Shown in pieces: positions 5,491 to 32,592 of a stretch of DNA of 52,936 bases. The stretch comes from Escherichia phage vB_EcoM_PiR, in the sequence record OM313461; one strand, 5' to 3'. The notes under the pieces are model-generated. The model searched no databases. It was not told where the DNA came from and saw nothing but the letters and a program-made list of their open reading frames with translations. The position numbers and the translations under genes were made by a program. Every line of letters starts with the position of its first letter. Within the stretch, counting starts at the first letter, position 1.

Positions 5491-5978
5491 TGATTCGCAT
5501 ACGCCTTGAACGTCGCGACAAACAAAAGTTCGAGTTCACCTACCGTGCCTTTAAGTCGTTTGAAGGTCAAGGCGTATCAGTAGGTGTTCATCCAGAACAC
5601 AACAGACGTGTAAACCCTAGAGATCGTATAACAAACGCTGAGCTTGCAATGGTGCATGAGTACGGTCTTAACGGTCTACCAGAACGAAGCTTTCTTCGTA
5701 GCGCTGTTGGTGGTAGGGGTAAAGGTCGACAGGCGATAAACAAAGCTTTCCGTGATAACGTGCCTGCCGTTCTTAGAGGAAGCATGACTGCCCATGAACT
5801 TAACGACAGAATAGGCCGTATGCTTGTCGATGCTGTTCACGACAGAATGGACAGTGATGTACCGCCTCCTAACACCGAGCTGACAGAAGAGCGCAAGCGC
5901 GGACCTGGTACGCTTAGAGAATCTATGCAGTTGTATGATTCGATAGGGTACAAGGTCGGCAGAAACTGGAGGCTATAA
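5490..5978 (+). CDS. hypothetical head-tail region protein
   Basis: start re-assigned to ATG 5490 (GGAGA SD, TAATG overlap with upstream stop) rather than track start 5421. Confidence 0.55.
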   Translation: MIRIRLERRDKQKFEFTYRAFKSFEGQGVSVGVHPEHNRRVNPRDRITNAELAMVHEYGLNGLPERSFLRSAVGGRGKGRQAINKAFRDNVPAVLRGSMTAHELNDRIGRMLVDAVHDRMDSDVPPPNTELTEERKRGPGTLRESMQLYDSIGYKVGRNWRL

Positions 5979-6355
5979 TGCTCAAGATAACTTCGCTAAT
6001 GAAGGATAAAACCTTTGTAGCATTAACGGATGTTCTTCTCCGAAACGATTCGCGCTTACCAAATGGCGACTTCGAAGACGAATATACAGCTGCAAAGTAT
6101 CTGTGTAACATTCAACCTGGTGCAGCTACCAACCAGCCTAACCTGTTGACTAAAGACGATGGCGAGCATGAGTTCCCACGTATTGCGATATACAGTGGAC
6201 AAGAGCTGAAGCTCGGAGACTTCGTTATATACGAAGACCAACCATACCGTGTATTCCGTATCGACCCATGGAGTCGTCATGGCCACTACTACGTTACAGC
6301 AATTCTCCATAAAGGACCTCAGGGAGCTCGTTCAGAAGCTTTTACCATTACCTGA
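5978..6355 (+). CDS. hypothetical head-tail region protein
   Basis: ATG 5978 with GGAGG SD. Confidence 0.5.
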   Translation: MLKITSLMKDKTFVALTDVLLRNDSRLPNGDFEDEYTAAKYLCNIQPGAATNQPNLLTKDDGEHEFPRIAIYSGQELKLGDFVIYEDQPYRVFRIDPWSRHGHYYVTAILHKGPQGARSEAFTIT

Positions 6356-6806
6356 CGGGACATGTATTATTGGTGAAGAGTCTGGTACAGTCGATGGTAG
6401 TCCGTATGTTTACATGCGCCCTGGCGACGCATATGACTTCGGACCTCCTCGAACCAAACAAGGCGCTGACGGCTTTGAGTACGTCAGTAAACCTATGATG
6501 ACATCTGTACGTATTACAGCTGTCGGTAAGAATGCTGCTGAGTTAATGCGTAAGCTACATATAGCACTGGGTAGCTCACCAGCTAAGCAGTTTAACCGTT
6601 TACGGCATTATGCAATAACCAAAATATCGAAGATTGATAATGTCGGTGGTGCTATTGGTGCAGGCTATGCGCAGAAATCAATGATGACTGTCGACATTAG
6701 CTATGTACATAAAGTTAAAATTGAGCAACCGTACATCTACAAGGTTGACATCACTTGTATGGATGATAACGGTAACAAAGCGACTGGTACAGTAGAGGAA
6801 CCGTAA
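6279..6806 (+). CDS. hypothetical head-tail region protein (start uncertain: 6279 or 6414)
   Basis: ATG 6279 preceded by GGAG; overlaps upstream ORF by 77 nt, alternative ATG 6414 in same frame. Confidence 0.45.
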   Translation: MATTTLQQFSIKDLRELVQKLLPLPDGTCIIGEESGTVDGSPYVYMRPGDAYDFGPPRTKQGADGFEYVSKPMMTSVRITAVGKNAAELMRKLHIALGSSPAKQFNRLRHYAITKISKIDNVGGAIGAGYAQKSMMTVDISYVHKVKIEQPYIYKVDITCMDDNGNKATGTVEEP

Positions 6807-7429
6807 TGGCAACTGAAGTAGACCCGGAACTGCAAGCGCAGCTGGATAAGCTAACAACTGCTGTCCAGCTTATTCATGACTTCGGTATGTCAGACGACTC
6901 AAGCATCCCTAACCCGGAAGGCGGTGTCATACGCACACTCGAAGGCATTAACGCTGCAATCAATGAAGCTATACCAAATTTTGAAAATGCTAACGAAGCT
7001 GCTATACAGGCGCGTGCTGCTCGTGATGCGGCTATTGCAGCCAAAGAAGCTGCAGAAACCGCAGCTGAACAGGCCACAGTATCTTCTACGTCAGCAATCT
7101 ATGAGTACGGCAACGTTGCAAGTGCAGCTACTGTAACTATACCTGCTGCATCTAAAACAATTGTCAGTCTTACTCTTAACCAGCCAAACACCGTAATTAA
7201 TATCGGTGGTGTATCTGACCCGTCTACTGTTGCGCGTCAGATTACTATTGCTATTAAGCAAGGCACTGGTTCTAACAAGGTGACTGCCTGGGATCCCAGA
7301 ATAAAATGGGCAAACAACAGAAAGCCCGTTCTGTCATTCCTTGTGGGTTACACAGATGTTGTTACGTTGCTTACATTTGACTCAGGAGCAACTTGGATGG
7401 GTTTCTTTAACGGTGGATGGATTAAATAA
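6806..7429 (+). CDS. hypothetical virion protein
   Basis: ATG 6806 overlapping upstream stop (TAATG); Ala-rich coiled N-terminal region. Confidence 0.5.
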   Translation: MATEVDPELQAQLDKLTTAVQLIHDFGMSDDSSIPNPEGGVIRTLEGINAAINEAIPNFENANEAAIQARAARDAAIAAKEAAETAAEQATVSSTSAIYEYGNVASAATVTIPAASKTIVSLTLNQPNTVINIGGVSDPSTVARQITIAIKQGTGSNKVTAWDPRIKWANNRKPVLSFLVGYTDVVTLLTFDSGATWMGFFNGGWIK

Positions 7430-25783: not shown

Positions 25784-25985
25784 TAAGCCTGAAGTTGTTT
25801 ATGTTGACAGGGTAGTCAAGGTTTATCCGCCTGGTGCGTACATGGTTAAATGCCATAAACCTGAATTAACAGGTAATACCTGGAAGGCAATAGGTCAGTT
25901 AGCTATTGAACGTGGAACAGCTCTTGATGATTGTGCAGACAAGATGGACAGCATAATTAACTGGAGTAACAAAGGGGCCGAGTGA
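25710..25985 (+). CDS. o-spanin (Rz1-like lipoprotein)
   Basis: ATG 25710 with AAGGG SD; signal peptide LILLLLLPFLNSC with lipobox-like Cys; overlaps i-spanin 3' end in another frame. Confidence 0.55.
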   Translation: MTKRQNMIRALILLLLLPFLNSCADKPEVVYVDRVVKVYPPGAYMVKCHKPELTGNTWKAIGQLAIERGTALDDCADKMDSIINWSNKGAE

Positions 25986-26002
25986 TGGCCCCTTTATTTA
26001 TT
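25971..26002. terminator. bidirectional terminator between convergent late (+) and replication (-) units
   Basis: stem GGGGCC/GGCCCC (25974-25979/25987-25992) with 7-nt loop, A-run upstream and TTTATTTATT downstream. Confidence 0.6.
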
Positions 26003-26515: not shown

Positions 26516-28483
26516 TTAGTGTGCCTCTGCCCAGTTACTTTCTATCTTAGCATCAGTAAGAACAGGTACACGAAGCGGTAGTACAGTTTCCATGACCCGT
26601 ACGAAATCATAGAACCCATCTTCTGCTTGCTTACCAGACGGTAGAGAGAAGTTAAGCTCATCGTGTACAGTCAGGCGAGGTACGCCAATCACGTCAAAGT
26701 AACCGTCTTCATACCCTTTCAGCATTGCAGACTTCATCTGGTCTGCTGACGACCCTTGCAGCACTCGGTTGATTGCCTTGTGGGTGTCTGCCAGTTTAAT
26801 GTTCGGGCCATACTCCTGACGTGCTTCTTCAAATGGCAAAGGCATCTTCCCGAATCCACCACGCTTTGGTACCCACTTATTGAACCACGTCTTCCGGCCC
26901 ATAAAGGTTTCTACGTACCCCTGGCTATAACATAAATCTTCATAATGCTTCATGGTAGCACCAATGAATGGTGCGCCCTGATGGTACGCCTTCAGAACAG
27001 GTTCTGCTTCTTCAGGCGTCATTGCTAACTTACGGGCAAGAGCATTAAGCATCATGCCATATAGCAAACCAAAGTTGATGGTCTTGGCTGGTTTACGCTC
27101 TATAACGTGACCTGAGGCTTCCTTGATAATATCGACCATAACATTGTGGTAATCTGCTTCCGGGTTAGCCGCGAAAATTGCTCGTAACTCATCAGCGCCC
27201 GGGCCGACTGCAAAATGCGCCATGAATCGATATTCAATTTGGGCGTAGTCTGCTGATCCCCATCTGTGTCCGACATCCGGTACGAAACAAGCACGAAGGA
27301 GTGGTCCCAGTATTTTGTGTCGAGACGGTATATTCTGCAGATTAGGGTCAGATGAGCTAAACCGACCACTAACGGTTCCACCGTCATCACCGCGCATTTG
27401 ATGGAATTGACCGTGAAGGAAGCCATTTGTATTCATCCCCAATATATAGCCACGAATAAACGTGGACTGGATTTTTTCATAAGACTTAATCTCAGACACC
27501 AGTTCCGCAAACGGATGGTGCAAGCCTGCTAAGAAGTCTGCCGTAAACGACGGATTACCCGCCGCTGTTTTGAAGTACTCCAGACCTAAATGGTCAAATG
27601 CAAGAGCTAAGTCCGGACCTGAGTTAACGTTAATGTTAAAGCCAATCTGGTCTTTAATCTGCTGGTGCATTTTCCTTATTTCAGCGCTAAGCGTATCATC
27701 CGCCTCTTTGGCTTTATCAAGGTCAACACGCACACCTGCAAAACGCATCTTAAGCATTAATGGAATAAGCTTGCACTCCATATAGAATACATCTGTTAAA
27801 CACCAGCGACTTAACAAAGGCCACTGGGCTTTGATAATGTGTATTGGTAAGTCGGCGTCAGATTCAGCATAGTAACCCACAAGACGAGGAGGCGTTTTGT
27901 AGATGTACTTTCTGGCTTCACCTGTTGGCTTACAGCCATAAGCATCTGAAATCCATTGGTACATCTCGGCTGAGTCTTTACCTTCGCCTACATACTTTCG
28001 TCCAAGTCCTTCAAGTGCAACACGCGCGCCTGGGTCAAGTAATGCTTCCGCGAATTGTACATCCATGCACAATCCTTTAACTTCCACGCCTTCTGCTGCA
28101 AGCCAGCCCAAGTCATATGTGATGTTAGCACCGACTTTAACTTGGTTAGGTCGCGAGAGTTCGAGCCGAAGCCAACCAAGTACTTCCTCAGCTGGAAGGT
28201 TATCCTCTTCGCCGAGCTCGTGTCTGATTGGGTAGTAAGCTTTGAAGCCGTTGTCCGTAGCGATACTAACTCCAACGATATGACCCTCCCTCCTGGCCCA
28301 ACCACTACCATTTGTATCCATCCCTGGGTCGTATGTTTCACAGTCAAGACCGATAATCTTTGCAGAAGACAAATCCGGGTAATGCGCGCGCGGCCGCCAT
28401 CCAGTATCCCTGACGTATGGTATAGGACGGTTGATAGGTTTAACATTCTTTGCACCTTCGAAGCTATCGAATAAAAAGCTCAT
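26516..28483 (-). CDS. DNA polymerase, family A, with 3'-5' exonuclease domain
   Basis: exo motif LDCET; pol motifs DYAQIEYR (A), KTINFGLLYG (B), VHDE (C); GAGGGGA SD. Confidence 0.9.
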   Translation of the reverse strand: MSFLFDSFEGAKNVKPINRPIPYVRDTGWRPRAHYPDLSSAKIIGLDCETYDPGMDTNGSGWARREGHIVGVSIATDNGFKAYYPIRHELGEEDNLPAEEVLGWLRLELSRPNQVKVGANITYDLGWLAAEGVEVKGLCMDVQFAEALLDPGARVALEGLGRKYVGEGKDSAEMYQWISDAYGCKPTGEARKYIYKTPPRLVGYYAESDADLPIHIIKAQWPLLSRWCLTDVFYMECKLIPLMLKMRFAGVRVDLDKAKEADDTLSAEIRKMHQQIKDQIGFNINVNSGPDLALAFDHLGLEYFKTAAGNPSFTADFLAGLHHPFAELVSEIKSYEKIQSTFIRGYILGMNTNGFLHGQFHQMRGDDGGTVSGRFSSSDPNLQNIPSRHKILGPLLRACFVPDVGHRWGSADYAQIEYRFMAHFAVGPGADELRAIFAANPEADYHNVMVDIIKEASGHVIERKPAKTINFGLLYGMMLNALARKLAMTPEEAEPVLKAYHQGAPFIGATMKHYEDLCYSQGYVETFMGRKTWFNKWVPKRGGFGKMPLPFEEARQEYGPNIKLADTHKAINRVLQGSSADQMKSAMLKGYEDGYFDVIGVPRLTVHDELNFSLPSGKQAEDGFYDFVRVMETVLPLRVPVLTDAKIESNWAEAH

Positions 28484-29478
28484 CAGTCCCCTCTCACATA
28501 CGCAATTACAACTGTACGAGTTGAGTTTTCCATTTTGAGCGCCTGACTACCAAGCCCTATTCTTTCCATGCCTTTAGCCAGTTTACTCATCTGACTAATA
28601 ACACAGTTGAACGGTTTACTAAACTTAGTCGACTGGAACTTAATGTCGACGGACATCTTAGGAATAATCTTGTCTGGTAAGTCTGCTTTTGCTGTTGACT
28701 CGCCAGTTATCTCCAGAATGGCTTGACCTTCGTCATACCCAGTAAGCTGGTCCATAACTTCCAGGAATTCAGGAGTGATGGCCTGCATATCCATTTCCAT
28801 ATTGAAGAACTTCGATACGTCTGGCCATTTGGCTGCGAGTACCGGAGCATCCATCTGTACGCCATCCGCAAAACCGAAGAACATCTGACCGCGGGTATAT
28901 CCTACGCTTGTGGGTTCCATCTTCAGCTTAACCAGAGCCTCAAGCATTGGTTTGGCTATGGCACATTCAAATTCAAAATCTACATTCAACTTCTCGCGTA
29001 TCATATACTTACCGTTAGTGGCGTAAGCATAACCATCGCGCAGAAGTAAAGATGTTGCCCATACCTGCGGTGCTTCGTTAGGTACCCATTTGGCTAAGGC
29101 AGTTAATACCGGGAGTAATTCGCCATGTGCTGAATACCAGTTGTTAACTGTAGCAAGCGGCGGTATTGGTTCATTAAGCGCTTGCATTCTTGTTTTAAGT
29201 ACACCTGCTGTGACCGTGAGGTTTCCAGCGGCTGTAATGTTAAAAGTAATCTGTTCAGTTCTTGCCGCATTAACGGCCTTACGAAATGATTCAGCATCCA
29301 CTTGCAGGTCTGGAAATCCTTTACATGGCGCTCGTAGTAATACGTTCTTGTAGTATGAATGGATTGTTCCGTCTGCAATCCATATTTTGCCCATAAGACC
29401 ACTATCAGTATACTTGATGGGACGAGCTTGTTGAACGGCAGTCTGTATTTGTTTGGTGTCATAGTTAAACTTGCTCAT
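28483..29478 (-). CDS. hypothetical protein, possibly sliding-clamp-like polymerase accessory factor
   Basis: 331 aa adjacent to polymerase; WPDVSKFF segment resembles the beta-clamp (F/W)PDYxxV motif; weak, by eye. Confidence 0.35.
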   Translation of the reverse strand: MSKFNYDTKQIQTAVQQARPIKYTDSGLMGKIWIADGTIHSYYKNVLLRAPCKGFPDLQVDAESFRKAVNAARTEQITFNITAAGNLTVTAGVLKTRMQALNEPIPPLATVNNWYSAHGELLPVLTALAKWVPNEAPQVWATSLLLRDGYAYATNGKYMIREKLNVDFEFECAIAKPMLEALVKLKMEPTSVGYTRGQMFFGFADGVQMDAPVLAAKWPDVSKFFNMEMDMQAITPEFLEVMDQLTGYDEGQAILEITGESTAKADLPDKIIPKMSVDIKFQSTKFSKPFNCVISQMSKLAKGMERIGLGSQALKMENSTRTVVIAYVRGD

Positions 29479-29485
29479 AGTATAA

Positions 29486-29501
29486 CGGGGCCGAAGCCCC
29501 G
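29486..29501 (-). other. GC hairpin with UUCG tetraloop (as RNA: CGGGGC-UUCG-GCCCCG) at gene junction
   Basis: perfect 6-bp stem; lies between TS-like stop and next start; same core as hairpin at 35927-35946. Confidence 0.6.
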
Positions 29502-29508
29502 CTCCATC

Positions 29509-30393
29509 TTATACGGCCATTTGTAGTTTGATGTTTGGCATTGGTTTGTACTTCTCAACCATTGGCGTAACATCGGCAGGAGTGAAGTCAAACACTGACA
29601 CGTCGTAAATTGCGTTAATGTCAGGACGACCTTCAAAGTTAGTGTCCAGTGTAGTATCAGAATTGCTTACGATACGTTGCAGGAAAATCTTTGCAGCATC
29701 GATATGATTCTGATAGATGTGATAGTCACCCAGCGTAACAGTCATATCACCTACCCCAGTACCCAGCTCAGCAGCAATGGTAATCTGCAGCATTTGATGC
29801 AACAGAATATCGTGAGGCAGACCCAGAATAACATCCGCGCTACGCATGTGGAACATCAGCTCTAATTCATTGCGGTTGTTAATGAACAGCTGAAAACCAT
29901 GGTAACAAGGCGGAAGGGCCATGGCGTCCATCTCTTGTGGGTTCCATGCCGTAATGTATGCCCGGCGGTCAGTAGGCTTAACCTTCAGCGTTTCAATAAC
30001 ATCTTTAAGCTGGTTAGTAAGAACACCATTCTTGTAGAATGGCTTAATCCATTGCACGCCGTACACAGGACCTAAGTCACGGTTGTCTGGCGTACCCCAG
30101 CGTTTGTTTGCGTCCTGCAGGTTACCTTCCCACCAGTTGCAGCCAAAGCCTTTGAGCGTGTCGACGTTTGAAATACCGTTGATAAAGCAGTAAAGCTCAG
30201 CAGCAACAGCTTTGATGTTAACAGGTTTAAACACCGGCACCATCAGTTTGTTGTCGTTAAAAGCCAGCTTAAATGCTGTACCAAAACAACGGCGTGTACC
30301 AACACCTGTACGGTCTACAACATCCTCGCCTTTACGCAGGATAAAAGAAATGATGTCGCTGTAAAGAGAATCGACAGTGCTATATGTTTTCAT
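29509..30393 (-). CDS. thymidylate-synthase-fold enzyme, predicted dCMP-specific (dCMP hydroxymethylase or methylase)
   Basis: aligns to ThyA: DRTGxGT, DLGPVYG, catalytic Cys in ALPPCYHGFQ, RSxD, GDYHIYQNH; specificity Asn replaced by Asp in GLPHD. Confidence 0.8.
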   Translation of the reverse strand: MKTYSTVDSLYSDIISFILRKGEDVVDRTGVGTRRCFGTAFKLAFNDNKLMVPVFKPVNIKAVAAELYCFINGISNVDTLKGFGCNWWEGNLQDANKRWGTPDNRDLGPVYGVQWIKPFYKNGVLTNQLKDVIETLKVKPTDRRAYITAWNPQEMDAMALPPCYHGFQLFINNRNELELMFHMRSADVILGLPHDILLHQMLQITIAAELGTGVGDMTVTLGDYHIYQNHIDAAKIFLQRIVSNSDTTLDTNFEGRPDINAIYDVSVFDFTPADVTPMVEKYKPMPNIKLQMAV

Positions 30394-30986
30394 TAAAACA
30401 GTTCCTTTTGAGCCGGGTTAACGTGTGCGTCGATGATGGCCTGGATGTCAGGTGCTTTCCATCCTTCAGGCTTAACAATATCCTGACCAGACTTATGCTT
30501 ACTGTTGCTTGCATCAGGCTTAGCACGTTCTTTCGCCATGTTAGCAACTTGTACCGCATCCCATGCTGCGTCGAGTGGCCAGTTGTTGTTTGCACACCAG
30601 GTAATCAGGTGGATAATTAACTGGGCCAGACGGTCGCAATGAGTGTCTTCAGTATCCTTAACGTATACAATAAGGCCGTCAGCATCGAAGCGGTCCATAA
30701 ATCCGCATGGCGTAGTTAACAGAATCGGATACTCAAATTCGTTGGTGAACCATGCAGTCTGGTCATACAGATATAACGTACCTGCAGCAATGTAAATTAA
30801 ATCTACAATACCGTCTAAGAATCCAGCTTTATCGCCGTCCTTCTTAGCTTGTTTAATTTCTTCCATCTCCTCAATAAGACGGTCATAGCGAAGCTTGAAC
30901 TCAGGTTTACCGCCTTGACTAACAGGCTTGAGGTCAAACTTCTCATGAAAAGCGGTAACGCCTGCAGCAATTTTACTGAATCGCAT
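30393..30986 (-). CDS. MazG-like nucleoside triphosphate pyrophosphohydrolase (probable)
   Basis: EEMEEI ... DGIVDLIYIA acidic helix motifs typical of all-alpha NTP pyrophosphatases; TAATG overlap with TS-like gene. Confidence 0.5.
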   Translation of the reverse strand: MRFSKIAAGVTAFHEKFDLKPVSQGGKPEFKLRYDRLIEEMEEIKQAKKDGDKAGFLDGIVDLIYIAAGTLYLYDQTAWFTNEFEYPILLTTPCGFMDRFDADGLIVYVKDTEDTHCDRLAQLIIHLITWCANNNWPLDAAWDAVQVANMAKERAKPDASNSKHKSGQDIVKPEGWKAPDIQAIIDAHVNPAQKELF

Positions 30987-31371
30987 TTCGTAACTCCTTA
31001 CAAACAGTTTCGATAAACTTACGCTTAATTTCTGTAGACCAGATAATATGACGAGCCTGTTCTAAAGTGTCCCAACGTTCTTTACCCACAGGAAAGGGAA
31101 CAATGAAAAGGCCGGTACGGGATATGCGCTTGATAAACGGGAATTTACAGCGCATGGTTGTTTCAAACTTGATAAAGTTGGTTTGCACTTCGCGTGTAAA
31201 CTTGACCTTATCAAATTCATGTTCAAGAGTTTGAGCAAGGTTGCATACTTCCTGGAAAGAAGATGTGGGTAAATAATCTTCGCGGCCGACGGTGTTCACG
31301 TAGTCGATTTGGCCTTCGAGTCGAAGTATCCAAATCCTGTAATAAGCTTCAGCAACACGTTGTAGGTTCAT
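30973..31371 (-). CDS. hypothetical protein
   Basis: ATG 31371 with GAGGAGAG SD. Confidence 0.55.
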   Translation of the reverse strand: MNLQRVAEAYYRIWILRLEGQIDYVNTVGREDYLPTSSFQEVCNLAQTLEHEFDKVKFTREVQTNFIKFETTMRCKFPFIKRISRTGLFIVPFPVGKERWDTLEQARHIIWSTEIKRKFIETVCKELRNAIQ

Positions 31372-31397: not shown

Positions 31398-31426
31398 ATT
31401 ATACCACATCACTCTCTAGTGGTAAA
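31398..31426 (-). promoter_or_regulatory. sigma70-like promoter TTTACC-N17-TATAAT (minus strand)
   Basis: reverse complement of 31421-31426 is TTTACC and of 31398-31403 is TATAAT, 17-bp spacer. Confidence 0.55.
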
Positions 31427-31445
31427 GCACTTTTTATGCTTCGGG

Positions 31446-31477
31446 TAAAAATAAAAAGGACCAGCGTTAACTGGTCC
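31446..31477 (-). terminator. rho-independent terminator
   Basis: stem GGACCAG/CTGGTCC (31458-31464/31471-31477), 6-nt loop; on minus strand followed by UUUUUAUUUUU. Confidence 0.7.
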
Positions 31478-31739
31478 TTTTGGCAGGGTGGCGTAAGGAG
31501 ATACAAGGAATCGCAGTTATGCAACCAGGCAGCGCATATGAGATTGGCTAAAGGACTGACCGACTTAATCCCCGCGACGAGTCGAAAGGAGGTACCATCA
31601 AGTAGCCAATCACATATGCGTTACTTGCTGTGTGCTCTTACCACAGAAAGTATATAGCGTTACACTTATCACACAGTTGTAGTGGCAAAAGCACACAGCA
31701 AGTACAACCTTAGTTGTGGTGTCTTAGCACCTGAGTTAT

Positions 31740-32047: not shown

Positions 32048-32515
32048 TTATTCAGCAACTTCTTCGTTGTCGCCTTCGATCGCGCCAGCCAGTTTAGCAG
32101 CTTCAGCTTTAGCAGCTTCTGCTTTCTGGCGAGCTTTTTCAGCTTTCTCTTCAGCTTTGCGAATCTGCTCAGCAGCTTTCGCTTCGGCTTTTTCAGCTTT
32201 GATGCGAGCACGCTCTTCAGCTTTACGCTGTTTTTCAGCGGCTTTAGCAGCATCGCGTTCTGCTTTAGCGGTATCAACACGCTTAGCCAGAACTTTACCA
32301 GTGGCTTTACGCCAGTAGGTCAGCTGGGAAGAAACAGTACCACGGGACATTTCGGTAGTGGCAACAACTTCGTCCATAACGTCAGAGCTGGACTTGCCTT
32401 CTTCATGGGCTTTATCAGCCAGGTCCCATACGTAACGTGCGCCAGTACCAGCTGCCGGATACAGTACGCCGTTAACTTCTTCTTTACCAGTTACAAAAGT
32501 CAGTTTCTCGCTCAT
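32048..32515 (-). CDS. hypothetical protein with Ala/Lys/Glu-rich low-complexity C-terminal tail
   Basis: start re-assigned to ATG 32515 with GAGGAA SD; C-terminal KAEE/AKAA repeats. Confidence 0.6.
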   Translation of the reverse strand: MSEKLTFVTGKEEVNGVLYPAAGTGARYVWDLADKAHEEGKSSSDVMDEVVATTEMSRGTVSSQLTYWRKATGKVLAKRVDTAKAERDAAKAAEKQRKAEERARIKAEKAEAKAAEQIRKAEEKAEKARQKAEAAKAEAAKLAGAIEGDNEEVAE

Positions 32516-32563
32516 AATTTTTTCCTCGTCTACAGGGCTTAATGTTTGTTCGTTACGTGAGTT

Positions 32564-32592
32564 AATATACGTCATTTAAAAGAGAGTGTAAA
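32564..32592 (-). promoter_or_regulatory. sigma70-like promoter TTTACA-N17-TATATT (minus strand)
   Basis: reverse complement of 32587-32592 is TTTACA and of 32564-32569 is TATATT. Confidence 0.55.

Follow-up and report, generated by a model that had tools for sequence, protein, structure and literature searches.

A diverged DnaN-like sliding-clamp homologue encoded beside the family-A DNA polymerase of Escherichia phage vB_EcoM_PiR

Escherichia phage vB_EcoM_PiR (sequence record OM313461) encodes, directly next to its family-A DNA polymerase (PolA), a 331-residue protein that, as judged from profile searches and a structural model, is homologous to the bacterial β sliding clamp (DnaN), though compact and highly diverged. 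The whole stretch of DNA analysed, 52,936 nucleotides long, is referred to here as the window. The explanation that accounts best for the observations overall, and to which we assign a probability of about 0.72, is that the protein is a DnaN-like ring clamp that serves as processivity factor of the phage PolA, with PolA docking onto it by its N-terminus. The evidence for this proposal comes from the fold of the protein and its peptide-binding pocket, from the arrangement of clamp and polymerase genes in viral loci, and from a short peptide at the N-terminus of the polymerases that follow the clamp.

Results

Sequence and fold of the clamp protein

The homology of the 331-residue protein to DnaN is visible with profiles and structure only. 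The protein matches PHROG 947, annotated as "DNA polymerase processivity factor", with E=7.2e-48, such that residues 1-328 align with positions 2-351 of the 368 profile positions. A profile constructed from 13 family sequences matched the DnaN chains 4trt and 8xla when compared with the PDB (E~2e-6), in an alignment that puts the W-P-D of the family on the F-P-D of DnaN, and a profile from 79 family sequences matched E. coli DnaN with E=4.6e-6 over 317 columns. The comparison of the 13-sequence alignment with E. coli DnaN alone, performed with hhalign, is weak (E=0.003, probability 10%).

The AlphaFold2 model of the clamp has a mean predicted local distance difference test score (pLDDT) of 88.5 and a predicted template-modelling score (pTM) of 0.81, and analysis of the model with DSSP identifies six β-α-β-β-β units, i.e., three clamp-fold domains. 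The β-strand periodicity that a first-pass annotation, made by a model from the sequence alone, had noticed in the protein is in agreement with this β-rich model. Foldseek searches of the PDB with the model returned DnaN structures at all of the top 50 positions, aligned over the full length (~370 aligned columns) with template-modelling scores (TMq) of 0.74-0.81, E values of 5e-19 to 3e-17 and sequence identities of 10-15%, and no gp45 or PCNA structures were among these 50 matches. The first-pass annotation had advanced a sliding clamp as a possible reading, to be abandoned if the predicted fold proved unrelated to DNA clamps. The PHROG 947 assignment, the profile matches to DnaN and a confident model that superposes on DnaN over its full length all support the clamp reading, and an unrelated fold was not obtained. 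The same annotation had left room for a DNA-modification enzyme, for which we find no support as regards the clamp protein itself; it is the upstream neighbour that, in relatives, is often such an enzyme (DpdA).

The peptide-binding pocket

The segment WPDVSKFF, which had first drawn attention to the gene, is present at residues 218-225, and its perceived likeness to the β-clamp motif turns out to be real homology, since W218-P219-D220 fall on E. coli F241-P242-D243 in the profile alignments. The segment as a whole corresponds to F241-P242-D243-Y-R-R246-V247 of DnaN, and the W, P and D of the motif are conserved in 96%, 98% and 85%, respectively, of 52 non-redundant family members. In the E. 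coli clamp, P242, R246 and V247 line the peptide-binding pocket, subsite I of which includes the residues R152, L155, T172, G174, H175, R176, L177, P242, R246 and V247 (PMC11139829). Three stretches of the phage clamp align with this region, i.e., residues 138-143 with E. coli R152-G157, residues 153-159 with A171-L177, and residues 218-224 with F241-V247, and all three are among the most conserved positions of the family. In domain II, Q138-W140 align with R152-Y154, and A153-T-N-G-K-Y-M159 with the A171-TDGHRL-177 stretch of subsite I. The window clamp retains the pocket residues T172, G174 and P242 (as T154, G156 and P219) and has a lysine in place of R246, while the family consensus retains R152, T172 and P242. 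The alignment of domain III and the C-terminus to E. coli DnaN is unreliable, and the pocket mapping is therefore one of subsite I.

Relatives and extent of the clamp family

Escherichia phage JEP7 (MT764207.1, 52,936 bp; Rosemountvirus) is collinear with the window and has the same gene coordinates. The nucleotide identity between the two is 98.7% over 3.9 kb (26516-30393), and the clamp proteins are 100% identical, which means that the nucleotide differences in the clamp gene are synonymous. The JEP7 record labels the clamp gene "hypothetical protein"; relatives have near-identical genes that go by the names "DNA polymerase beta subunit" or "DNA polymerase processivity factor", and the 99%-identity UniRef cluster to which the clamp belongs carries a name of the clamp-subunit kind. 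In view of these labels, the identification as a clamp is not new, being present already in the public annotation of relatives, and the base finding is an ordinary one. Taken alone, it gives a function to one JEP7 "hypothetical protein" that relatives already have annotated; what goes beyond annotation is the coupling of clamp and polymerase over two polymerase families, the shared candidate tether at the polymerase N-terminus, the co-variation of the pocket, and the missing loader.

An exhaustive HMMER search for the family yielded 3,312 clusters (50% identity) at E<=1e-3 and 588 at E<=1e-30. Members are seen in phage records and viral contigs, with hosts that span Vibrio, Pseudomonas and Escherichia, and nearly all of the best 150 are ~310-335 residues long, i.e., ~35-50 residues shorter than cellular DnaN. 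Two members, P0056 (497 residues) and P0123 (361 residues), have extra N-terminal sequence of ~174 and ~40 residues, respectively, before the clamp region, which may represent fusions or mis-called start codons.

Clamp and polymerase genes in viral loci

In the window, the first-pass annotation had placed the 331-residue gene at 28483-29478, immediately downstream of the polymerase gene and with an overlap of stop and start codons. The coordinates and the length are exact for an ATG-initiated open reading frame (ORF), but this ORF lies on the minus strand; translation of the same interval on the plus strand meets stops throughout. The two genes do adjoin, with base 28483 in common, but in transcriptional order the clamp gene is located 5′ of the gene for PolA, its presumed partner. 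The overlap was likewise correctly seen: it consists of a TGATG in which the stop codon of the clamp and the start codon of the polymerase, not the reverse, have one base in common. Together with a Shine-Dalgarno-like GAGGGG run in the last clamp codons, ahead of the PolA start, this overlap suggests that the two genes are translationally coupled. The corresponding gaps in relatives are 1-2 nt, with AGGGA or AAGGAG just 5′ of the polymerase start.

The gene arrangement was surveyed in a sample of 80 viral loci that encode a member of the clamp family. An ORF of 650-745 residues follows directly after the clamp on the same strand in 73 of the 80 loci, often with overlapping codons. The remaining loci comprise one with a polymerase after an inserted ORF, one with a truncated polymerase at the contig end, four that end at the clamp, and locus L056 (clamp at 5806-6888), which is the sole case among informative loci where no polymerase could be recognised downstream, i.e., none carrying the N-terminal module described below in the 3.5 kb past the clamp. 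A polymerase is accordingly found after the clamp, on its strand, in 75 of the 76 informative loci.

The polymerases in question belong to two families. Close relatives of the window PolA (E<1e-140; family A, PHROG 17) account for 22 of the 73 directly downstream polymerases, and 51 belong to PHROG 1252 (E~1e-220). When compared with the PDB, the PHROG 1252 polymerases are of family B (PolB), with matches to S. solfataricus PolB1 (E=2e-5) and E. coli Pol II (E=0.009), and BLAST detects no similarity between them and the window PolA. This assignment agrees with PolB being a hallmark of the Queuovirinae (PMC8265664). Upstream of the clamp there is usually a gene for a DpdA homologue (PHROG 887), both in the Queuovirinae and in many PolA-type loci, and in the lineage of the window a thymidylate-synthase homologue occupies the DpdA slot.

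A three-gene cassette, in the order modification or nucleotide-metabolism gene, clamp, polymerase, is conserved (L084:4779-8864, L085:5003-9126, L035:4994-8885 and other loci; 26516-30393 in the window).

Four phages with a related PolA (25-31% identity), namely PAE1, VP5, JeffCo and PSA28, lack both the clamp (best E>1) and the N-terminal module. The PolA of PAE1 (L086:45087-47081), a Pseudomonas phage without the clamp, starts with MSYLQPPLF..., which is Q-x-x-L-F-like and occupies the same N-terminal position; this peptide could be a motif for the host β clamp.

A shared peptide at the polymerase N-terminus

The polymerases that follow the clamp have a characteristic N-terminus. The motif G[LMFI][FYW]W is found near the N-terminus of all 51 PolB-type polymerases and of 16 of the 22 PolA-type polymerases, and in 4 of 2,655 other ORFs, one of those being a truncated polymerase. 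The motif is followed by a Pro/Lys-rich linker and then by an R-x-P-P-x-x-x-W...[FY]-[LP]-x-L element that precedes the exonuclease domain. A profile derived from PolB N-termini only matches the N-termini of all 16 GxFW PolA proteins (E 1e-10 to 6e-3) and, over 2,935 ORFs, gives no further match with E<0.1. It appears that polymerases of families A and B have been exchanged for one another, with the ~45-residue N-terminal module retained.

The six PolA exceptions are those of the window's lineage (MSFLFD...) and of L009 (MNNLFDW...). Alignment with MAFFT places the S-F-L-F of the window in register with the G-[LM]-F-W found in PolA and PolB relatives. MSFLF is invariant in Rosemountvirus-like PolAs with identities down to 72%, the clamps of which are down to 48% identical, and the LF moiety is invariant even when L009 is included. 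Compared with the canonical motif Q-φ-x-[L/M]-[F/L], the M-S-F-L-F of the window has the L-F and lacks the Gln, and relatives have x-x-G-[LMF]-F-W. In E. coli Pol II the motif reads QLGLF; that of the delta subunit, AMSLF, has no Gln, and LF by itself is able to bind to the β clamp (PMC11139829). The polymerase N-terminal peptide looks like the bacterial clamp-binding motif and is a candidate docking peptide. We found no earlier description of this N-terminal motif in open-access papers and bioRxiv preprints; the clamp-binding motifs of viral polymerases have been sought, and are known, at their C-termini.

The motif does not occur at the terminus of DpdA or of any other non-polymerase ORF within +/-6 kb of the 80 clamps. 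Tethering of DpdA or the thymidylate-synthase homologue to the clamp by the same peptide was considered and rejected on this ground.

Co-variation of pocket and peptide

Clamps paired with GxFW polymerases, PolA or PolB, have R138, P139, G143, N156, V/I157 and V/I224 at the pocket-aligned positions and a tail ending in ...GMR[L/M], like the ...PMRL of E. coli. In clamps of the SFLF lineage, to which that of the window belongs, the same positions are Q/K, V/A, S/T, G, K/R and F, and the tail reads ...YVRGD. The pocket-aligned residues are alike for GxFW PolA and GxFW PolB partners and different in the SFLF lineage, which is the pattern that co-adaptation of peptide and pocket predicts.

Discussion

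Proposed function

From the observed fold, homology, gene arrangement, conservation and co-variation, we infer how clamp and polymerase would work together. The clamp would form a head-to-tail homodimer that rings duplex DNA, and would act as processivity factor of the family-A polymerase that the phage itself encodes; the two genes are presumably co-transcribed and translationally coupled. PolA would dock via its extreme N-terminal hydrophobic peptide M-S-F-L-F-D, located on a flexible linker before the exonuclease domain, and the likely docking site is the cleft between clamp domains II and III, where bacterial Q-L-x-L-F motifs sit. With no recognisable clamp loader of the phage, loading would be performed either by the host DnaX complex or in a loader-independent manner. 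The function of the clamp as processivity factor of PolA is well supported by inference, with a probability of about 0.7.

We put forward a wider proposal more tentatively, and would give it clearly less than even chances, namely that the clamp family and the ~45-residue polymerase tether (G-[LMF]-F-W or S-F-L-F, Pro/Lys linker, PPxxxW...[FY][LP]xL) constitute a portable two-part processivity module that was kept while phages swapped the catalytic polymerase between families A and B. Clamp and polymerase would then form a private pair, apart from the host β clamp and without a phage loader, the host loader being borrowed or the clamp being self-loading.

Weighing of alternatives

Several observations weigh against the processivity-factor proposal. 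Searches with the clamp gave no match in Pfam at E<=1 and none in NCBIfam at E<=10; single-sequence phmmer against the PDB was also without a match, and precomputed Pfam domains are assigned to 0 of 19 clamp homologues. On such grounds the 331-residue protein might be taken for something other than a clamp, i.e., an unrelated protein or a DNA-modification enzyme, but this is effectively refuted by the Foldseek result, in which the full-length structural matches are to DnaN only, and it is further opposed by the profile matches to DnaN and PHROG 947 and by the fact that no library searched produced a catalytic-family signal. The pocket of the window clamp deviates from that of DnaN by the replacements R152 to Q, L155 to A, H175 to K, R176 to Y, L177 to M and V247 to F, and the peptide of the window PolA is degenerate, with no Gln and no GxFW. 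Moreover, the window PolA has no match to the PolB-derived N-terminal profile, and the claim for its peptide consequently rests on the MAFFT register and the invariance of MSFLF. All clamps of the SFLF lineage belong to one clade, so that phylogeny confounds the co-variation of pocket and peptide, and no experimental study of any member of the clamp family was found in the open-access papers and bioRxiv preprints. Loading belongs here as well: the PHROG-based annotation of the relative SPLA2 includes no clamp loader, and Pfam recognised none among ten ORFs of the window's replication module, where it detected only a Sak4-like AAA_24 ATPase, DUF669, a nuclease, helicases and a primase-helicase. 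Finally, the isoelectric point (pI) of the window clamp is 7.6, well above the 5.25 of E. coli β, in a family with a median of 5.7 and a range of 4.8-8.7. Kazlauskas and Venclovas tie a raised pI in combination with a missing loader to direct DNA binding (PMC3201878), and by this heuristic the value for the window clamp leans to direct DNA binding over a loaded ring.

The corresponding alternative is a protein that has the clamp fold and PolA as its partner, but which, as a monomer or open dimer, contacts DNA directly and needs no loader, like herpesvirus UL42/UL44 and in the way suggested for the PolIIIbeta homologue of Bacillus phage 0305phi8-36. We regard it as improbable, although it is the most serious of the competing explanations. 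Phage PolIIIbeta homologues are an established class, and the fact that loaders accompany fewer than half of viral clamps (PMC4889955) is in its favour, as are the absence of a recognisable loader and the pI; the use of a host loader is computationally untestable (PMC3201878). Against it, a pI of 7.6 is intermediate rather than strongly basic, many family members are acidic like cellular ring clamps and are also without neighbouring loaders, and the clamp model is a full three-domain crescent like DnaN. Less likely again is that the clamp mainly provides a mobile platform on which other DNA transactions take place, e.g., those of modification or nucleotide-salvage enzymes, repair nucleases or late transcription, rather than for polymerase processivity. 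The conserved synteny with a DpdA or thymidylate-synthase homologue would suit such a platform, and clamps do serve as tool-belts, T4 gp45 for example activating late transcription (PMC9690074). Late transcription of phage Mu uses the host clamp. Within the surveyed neighbourhoods, however, the N-terminal motif is confined to the polymerase, and the tight stop/start coupling is with the polymerase, whereas the upstream gene is set apart by a hairpin-containing spacer of 30 nt. Targeting of the host clamp is known from phages, and a clamp of this kind might act as a host-takeover decoy that sequesters the host clamp loader or clamp-binding proteins and thereby stops host replication. The DnaN fold with its partly conserved pocket is compatible with a decoy, and contact with the host loader is plausible given that no loader is encoded, but we consider this explanation very unlikely, since the coupling to a phage polymerase with a lineage-specific peptide is near-universal and the pocket residues track the peptide and not the host, the same pocket set being found over hosts from Vibrio to Pseudomonas to Escherichia.

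Features and gene context

The features of the clamp-polymerase region are listed in Table 1.

Table 1 Features of the clamp-polymerase region of the window
Feature	Position	Strand	Basis and remarks
Clamp gene, 331 residues plus stop	28483..29478	minus	ATG-initiated ORF; three-domain DnaN-like sliding-clamp homologue, PHROG 947 family
Clamp domain I, ~residues 1-110	29149..29478	minus	DSSP on model; predicted two β-α-β-β-β units, helices 8-18 and 62-70; aligned to E. coli β domain I; approximate boundaries
Clamp domain II, ~residues 111-222	28813..29148	minus	Model and alignments; predicted helices 121-129 and 176-185
Clamp domain III, ~residues 223-331	28486..28812	minus	Model; predicted helices 236-246 and 294-301, C-terminal strand ...RTVVIAYVRGD
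WPDVSKFF, residues 218-225	28804..28827	minus	Homologous to DnaN F241-P242-D243-Y-R-R246-V247
TGATG, clamp stop and PolA start, one base in common	28481..28485	minus	Sequence (...GGGGAC-TGATG-AGC...)
PolA, family-A DNA polymerase with 3′-5′ exonuclease domain, 655 residues	26516..28483	minus	Pfam DNA_pol_A E=1.6e-63, DNA_pol_A_exo1 E=6.9e-8; PHROG 17 E=7e-116
PolA N-terminal module, residues 1-40	28364..28483	minus	Candidate clamp-binding peptide MSFLFD, linker, RPIPYVRDTGWRPRAHYPDLSS, before ExoI motif; invariance and alignment register
Thymidylate-synthase homologue, directly upstream of clamp	29509..30393	minus	Pfam Thymidylat_synt E=2.3e-62; position of DpdA in Queuovirinae cassettes
Hairpin, 8 bp, GC-rich, UUCG loop, in the 30-nt spacer between thymidylate-synthase-like gene and clamp ATG	29484..29503	minus	Sequence

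The spacer hairpin has a folding energy of -17.9 kcal/mol, with a z of only -1.4 relative to shuffled sequences, and its candidacy as a significantly stable structure was rejected for this reason. A GGAG is located just 5′ of the stem and there is no Shine-Dalgarno sequence near the clamp ATG; the stem might bring the two together.

Consensus scans pointed to a strong terminator-like hairpin at 25971-25995, with 10 bp and a T-run after it, where the lysis genes and the replication operon converge. At 31398-31481, upstream of the ORF at 30973-31371, they gave a terminator-like site and, after it, an extended -10 promoter-like site. These sites would bound a transcription unit consisting of a hypothetical gene, a MazG-like gene, the ThyA-like gene, the clamp gene, the PolA gene and two small ORFs; the sigma-70 and terminator scans perform near chance level and are used for context only.

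Thymidylate-related genes are dense in the phage and include the thymidylate-synthase homologue, a MazG-like pyrophosphohydrolase, dCMP deaminase, dihydrofolate reductase and thymidylate kinase (29509-30986 in the window; L001:2368-3545 and 40428-40913 in the relative SPLA2). The thymidylate-synthase homologue of the window, with 294 residues, is longer than typical ThyA. A further ORF of the replication module, encoding 175 residues at 32048-32575 on the minus strand, carries a long low-complexity tail rich in Lys, Ala and Glu (...AKAAEKQRKAEERARIKAEKAEAKAAEQIRKAEEKAEKARQKAEAAKAEAAK...) and is without a match in Pfam; its product may be a histone-like or DNA-coating protein.

Comparison with known systems

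The clamp belongs to a large phage-only family, with at least 588 clusters at E<=1e-30, that is invisible to Pfam and NCBIfam, and the proposal offers a hypothesis for processive replication in phages of 40-70 kb. A 2011 study described phages in the 40-140 kb range as typically without clamps, and recorded PolA in combination with a PolIIIbeta homologue for two phages only, both of >150 kb and both with a gamma homologue (PMC3201878). The present family bears on a question posed in 2011 and again in 2016, namely by which route viral PolIIIbeta homologues without loaders reach DNA. It would further illustrate how polymerases can be exchanged in nature while the clamp tether stays fixed, and clamp and peptide would make a candidate orthogonal pair.

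With bacterial DnaN (E. coli β, PDB 3pwe and 3q4k; B. subtilis, 4tr6), the phage clamp shares three clamp-fold domains, with TM ~0.8 over the full length, and homologous FPD/WPD and ATDG/ATNG cleft segments. It differs in having only 10-15% identity, 331 residues compared with 366-380, a pI of 7.6 compared with 5.25, and the pocket replacements, and furthermore in being missed by the Pfam and NCBIfam DnaN models, in lacking a cognate loader, and in having PolA or PolB as partner instead of Pol III.

The PHROG 947 proteins of the Queuovirinae (Seuratvirus, Nipunavirus) and other phages, for which the labels 'DNA polymerase beta subunit' and 'putative replicative clamp' are also in use, are members of the same family, with 20-26% identity by tblastn and the same clamp-then-polymerase order. 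In those phages the clamp is combined with a family-B polymerase, DpdA upstream, G[LMF]FW, an R/P/G/N/V pocket and a ...GMR[L/M] tail, whereas the lineage of the window has PolA, a thymidylate-synthase homologue upstream, MSFLF, a Q/V/S/G/K/F pocket and a ...YVRGD tail.

Ma-LMM01 and RSL1 also encode a phage PolA alongside a DnaN homologue that was proposed as processivity factor (PMC3201878), however, their genomes exceed 150 kb and include a PolIIIgamma clamp-loader homologue, while the window phage has 53 kb and none was recognised. T4 gp45 and PCNA are of the clamp-fold superfamily and have the role proposed here, with the polymerase tethered by a short terminal hydrophobic peptide, but they consist of two domains (~230-260 residues) and form trimers, in contrast to the three domains and 331 residues of the window clamp. 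T4 in addition has its own loader, gp44/62, and a C-terminal polymerase motif, whereas no loader was recognised in the window phage and its candidate motif is N-terminal. A family-A polymerase that binds a DnaN-type clamp via a motif in the canonical pocket is exemplified by M. tuberculosis Pol I (bioRxiv 10.64898/2026.09.19.751633), where the motif, QLSLLDD, lies within the Klenow fragment and the clamp is cellular; in the window phage, the candidate motif is at the extreme N-terminus of PolA and the clamp is encoded by the phage itself.

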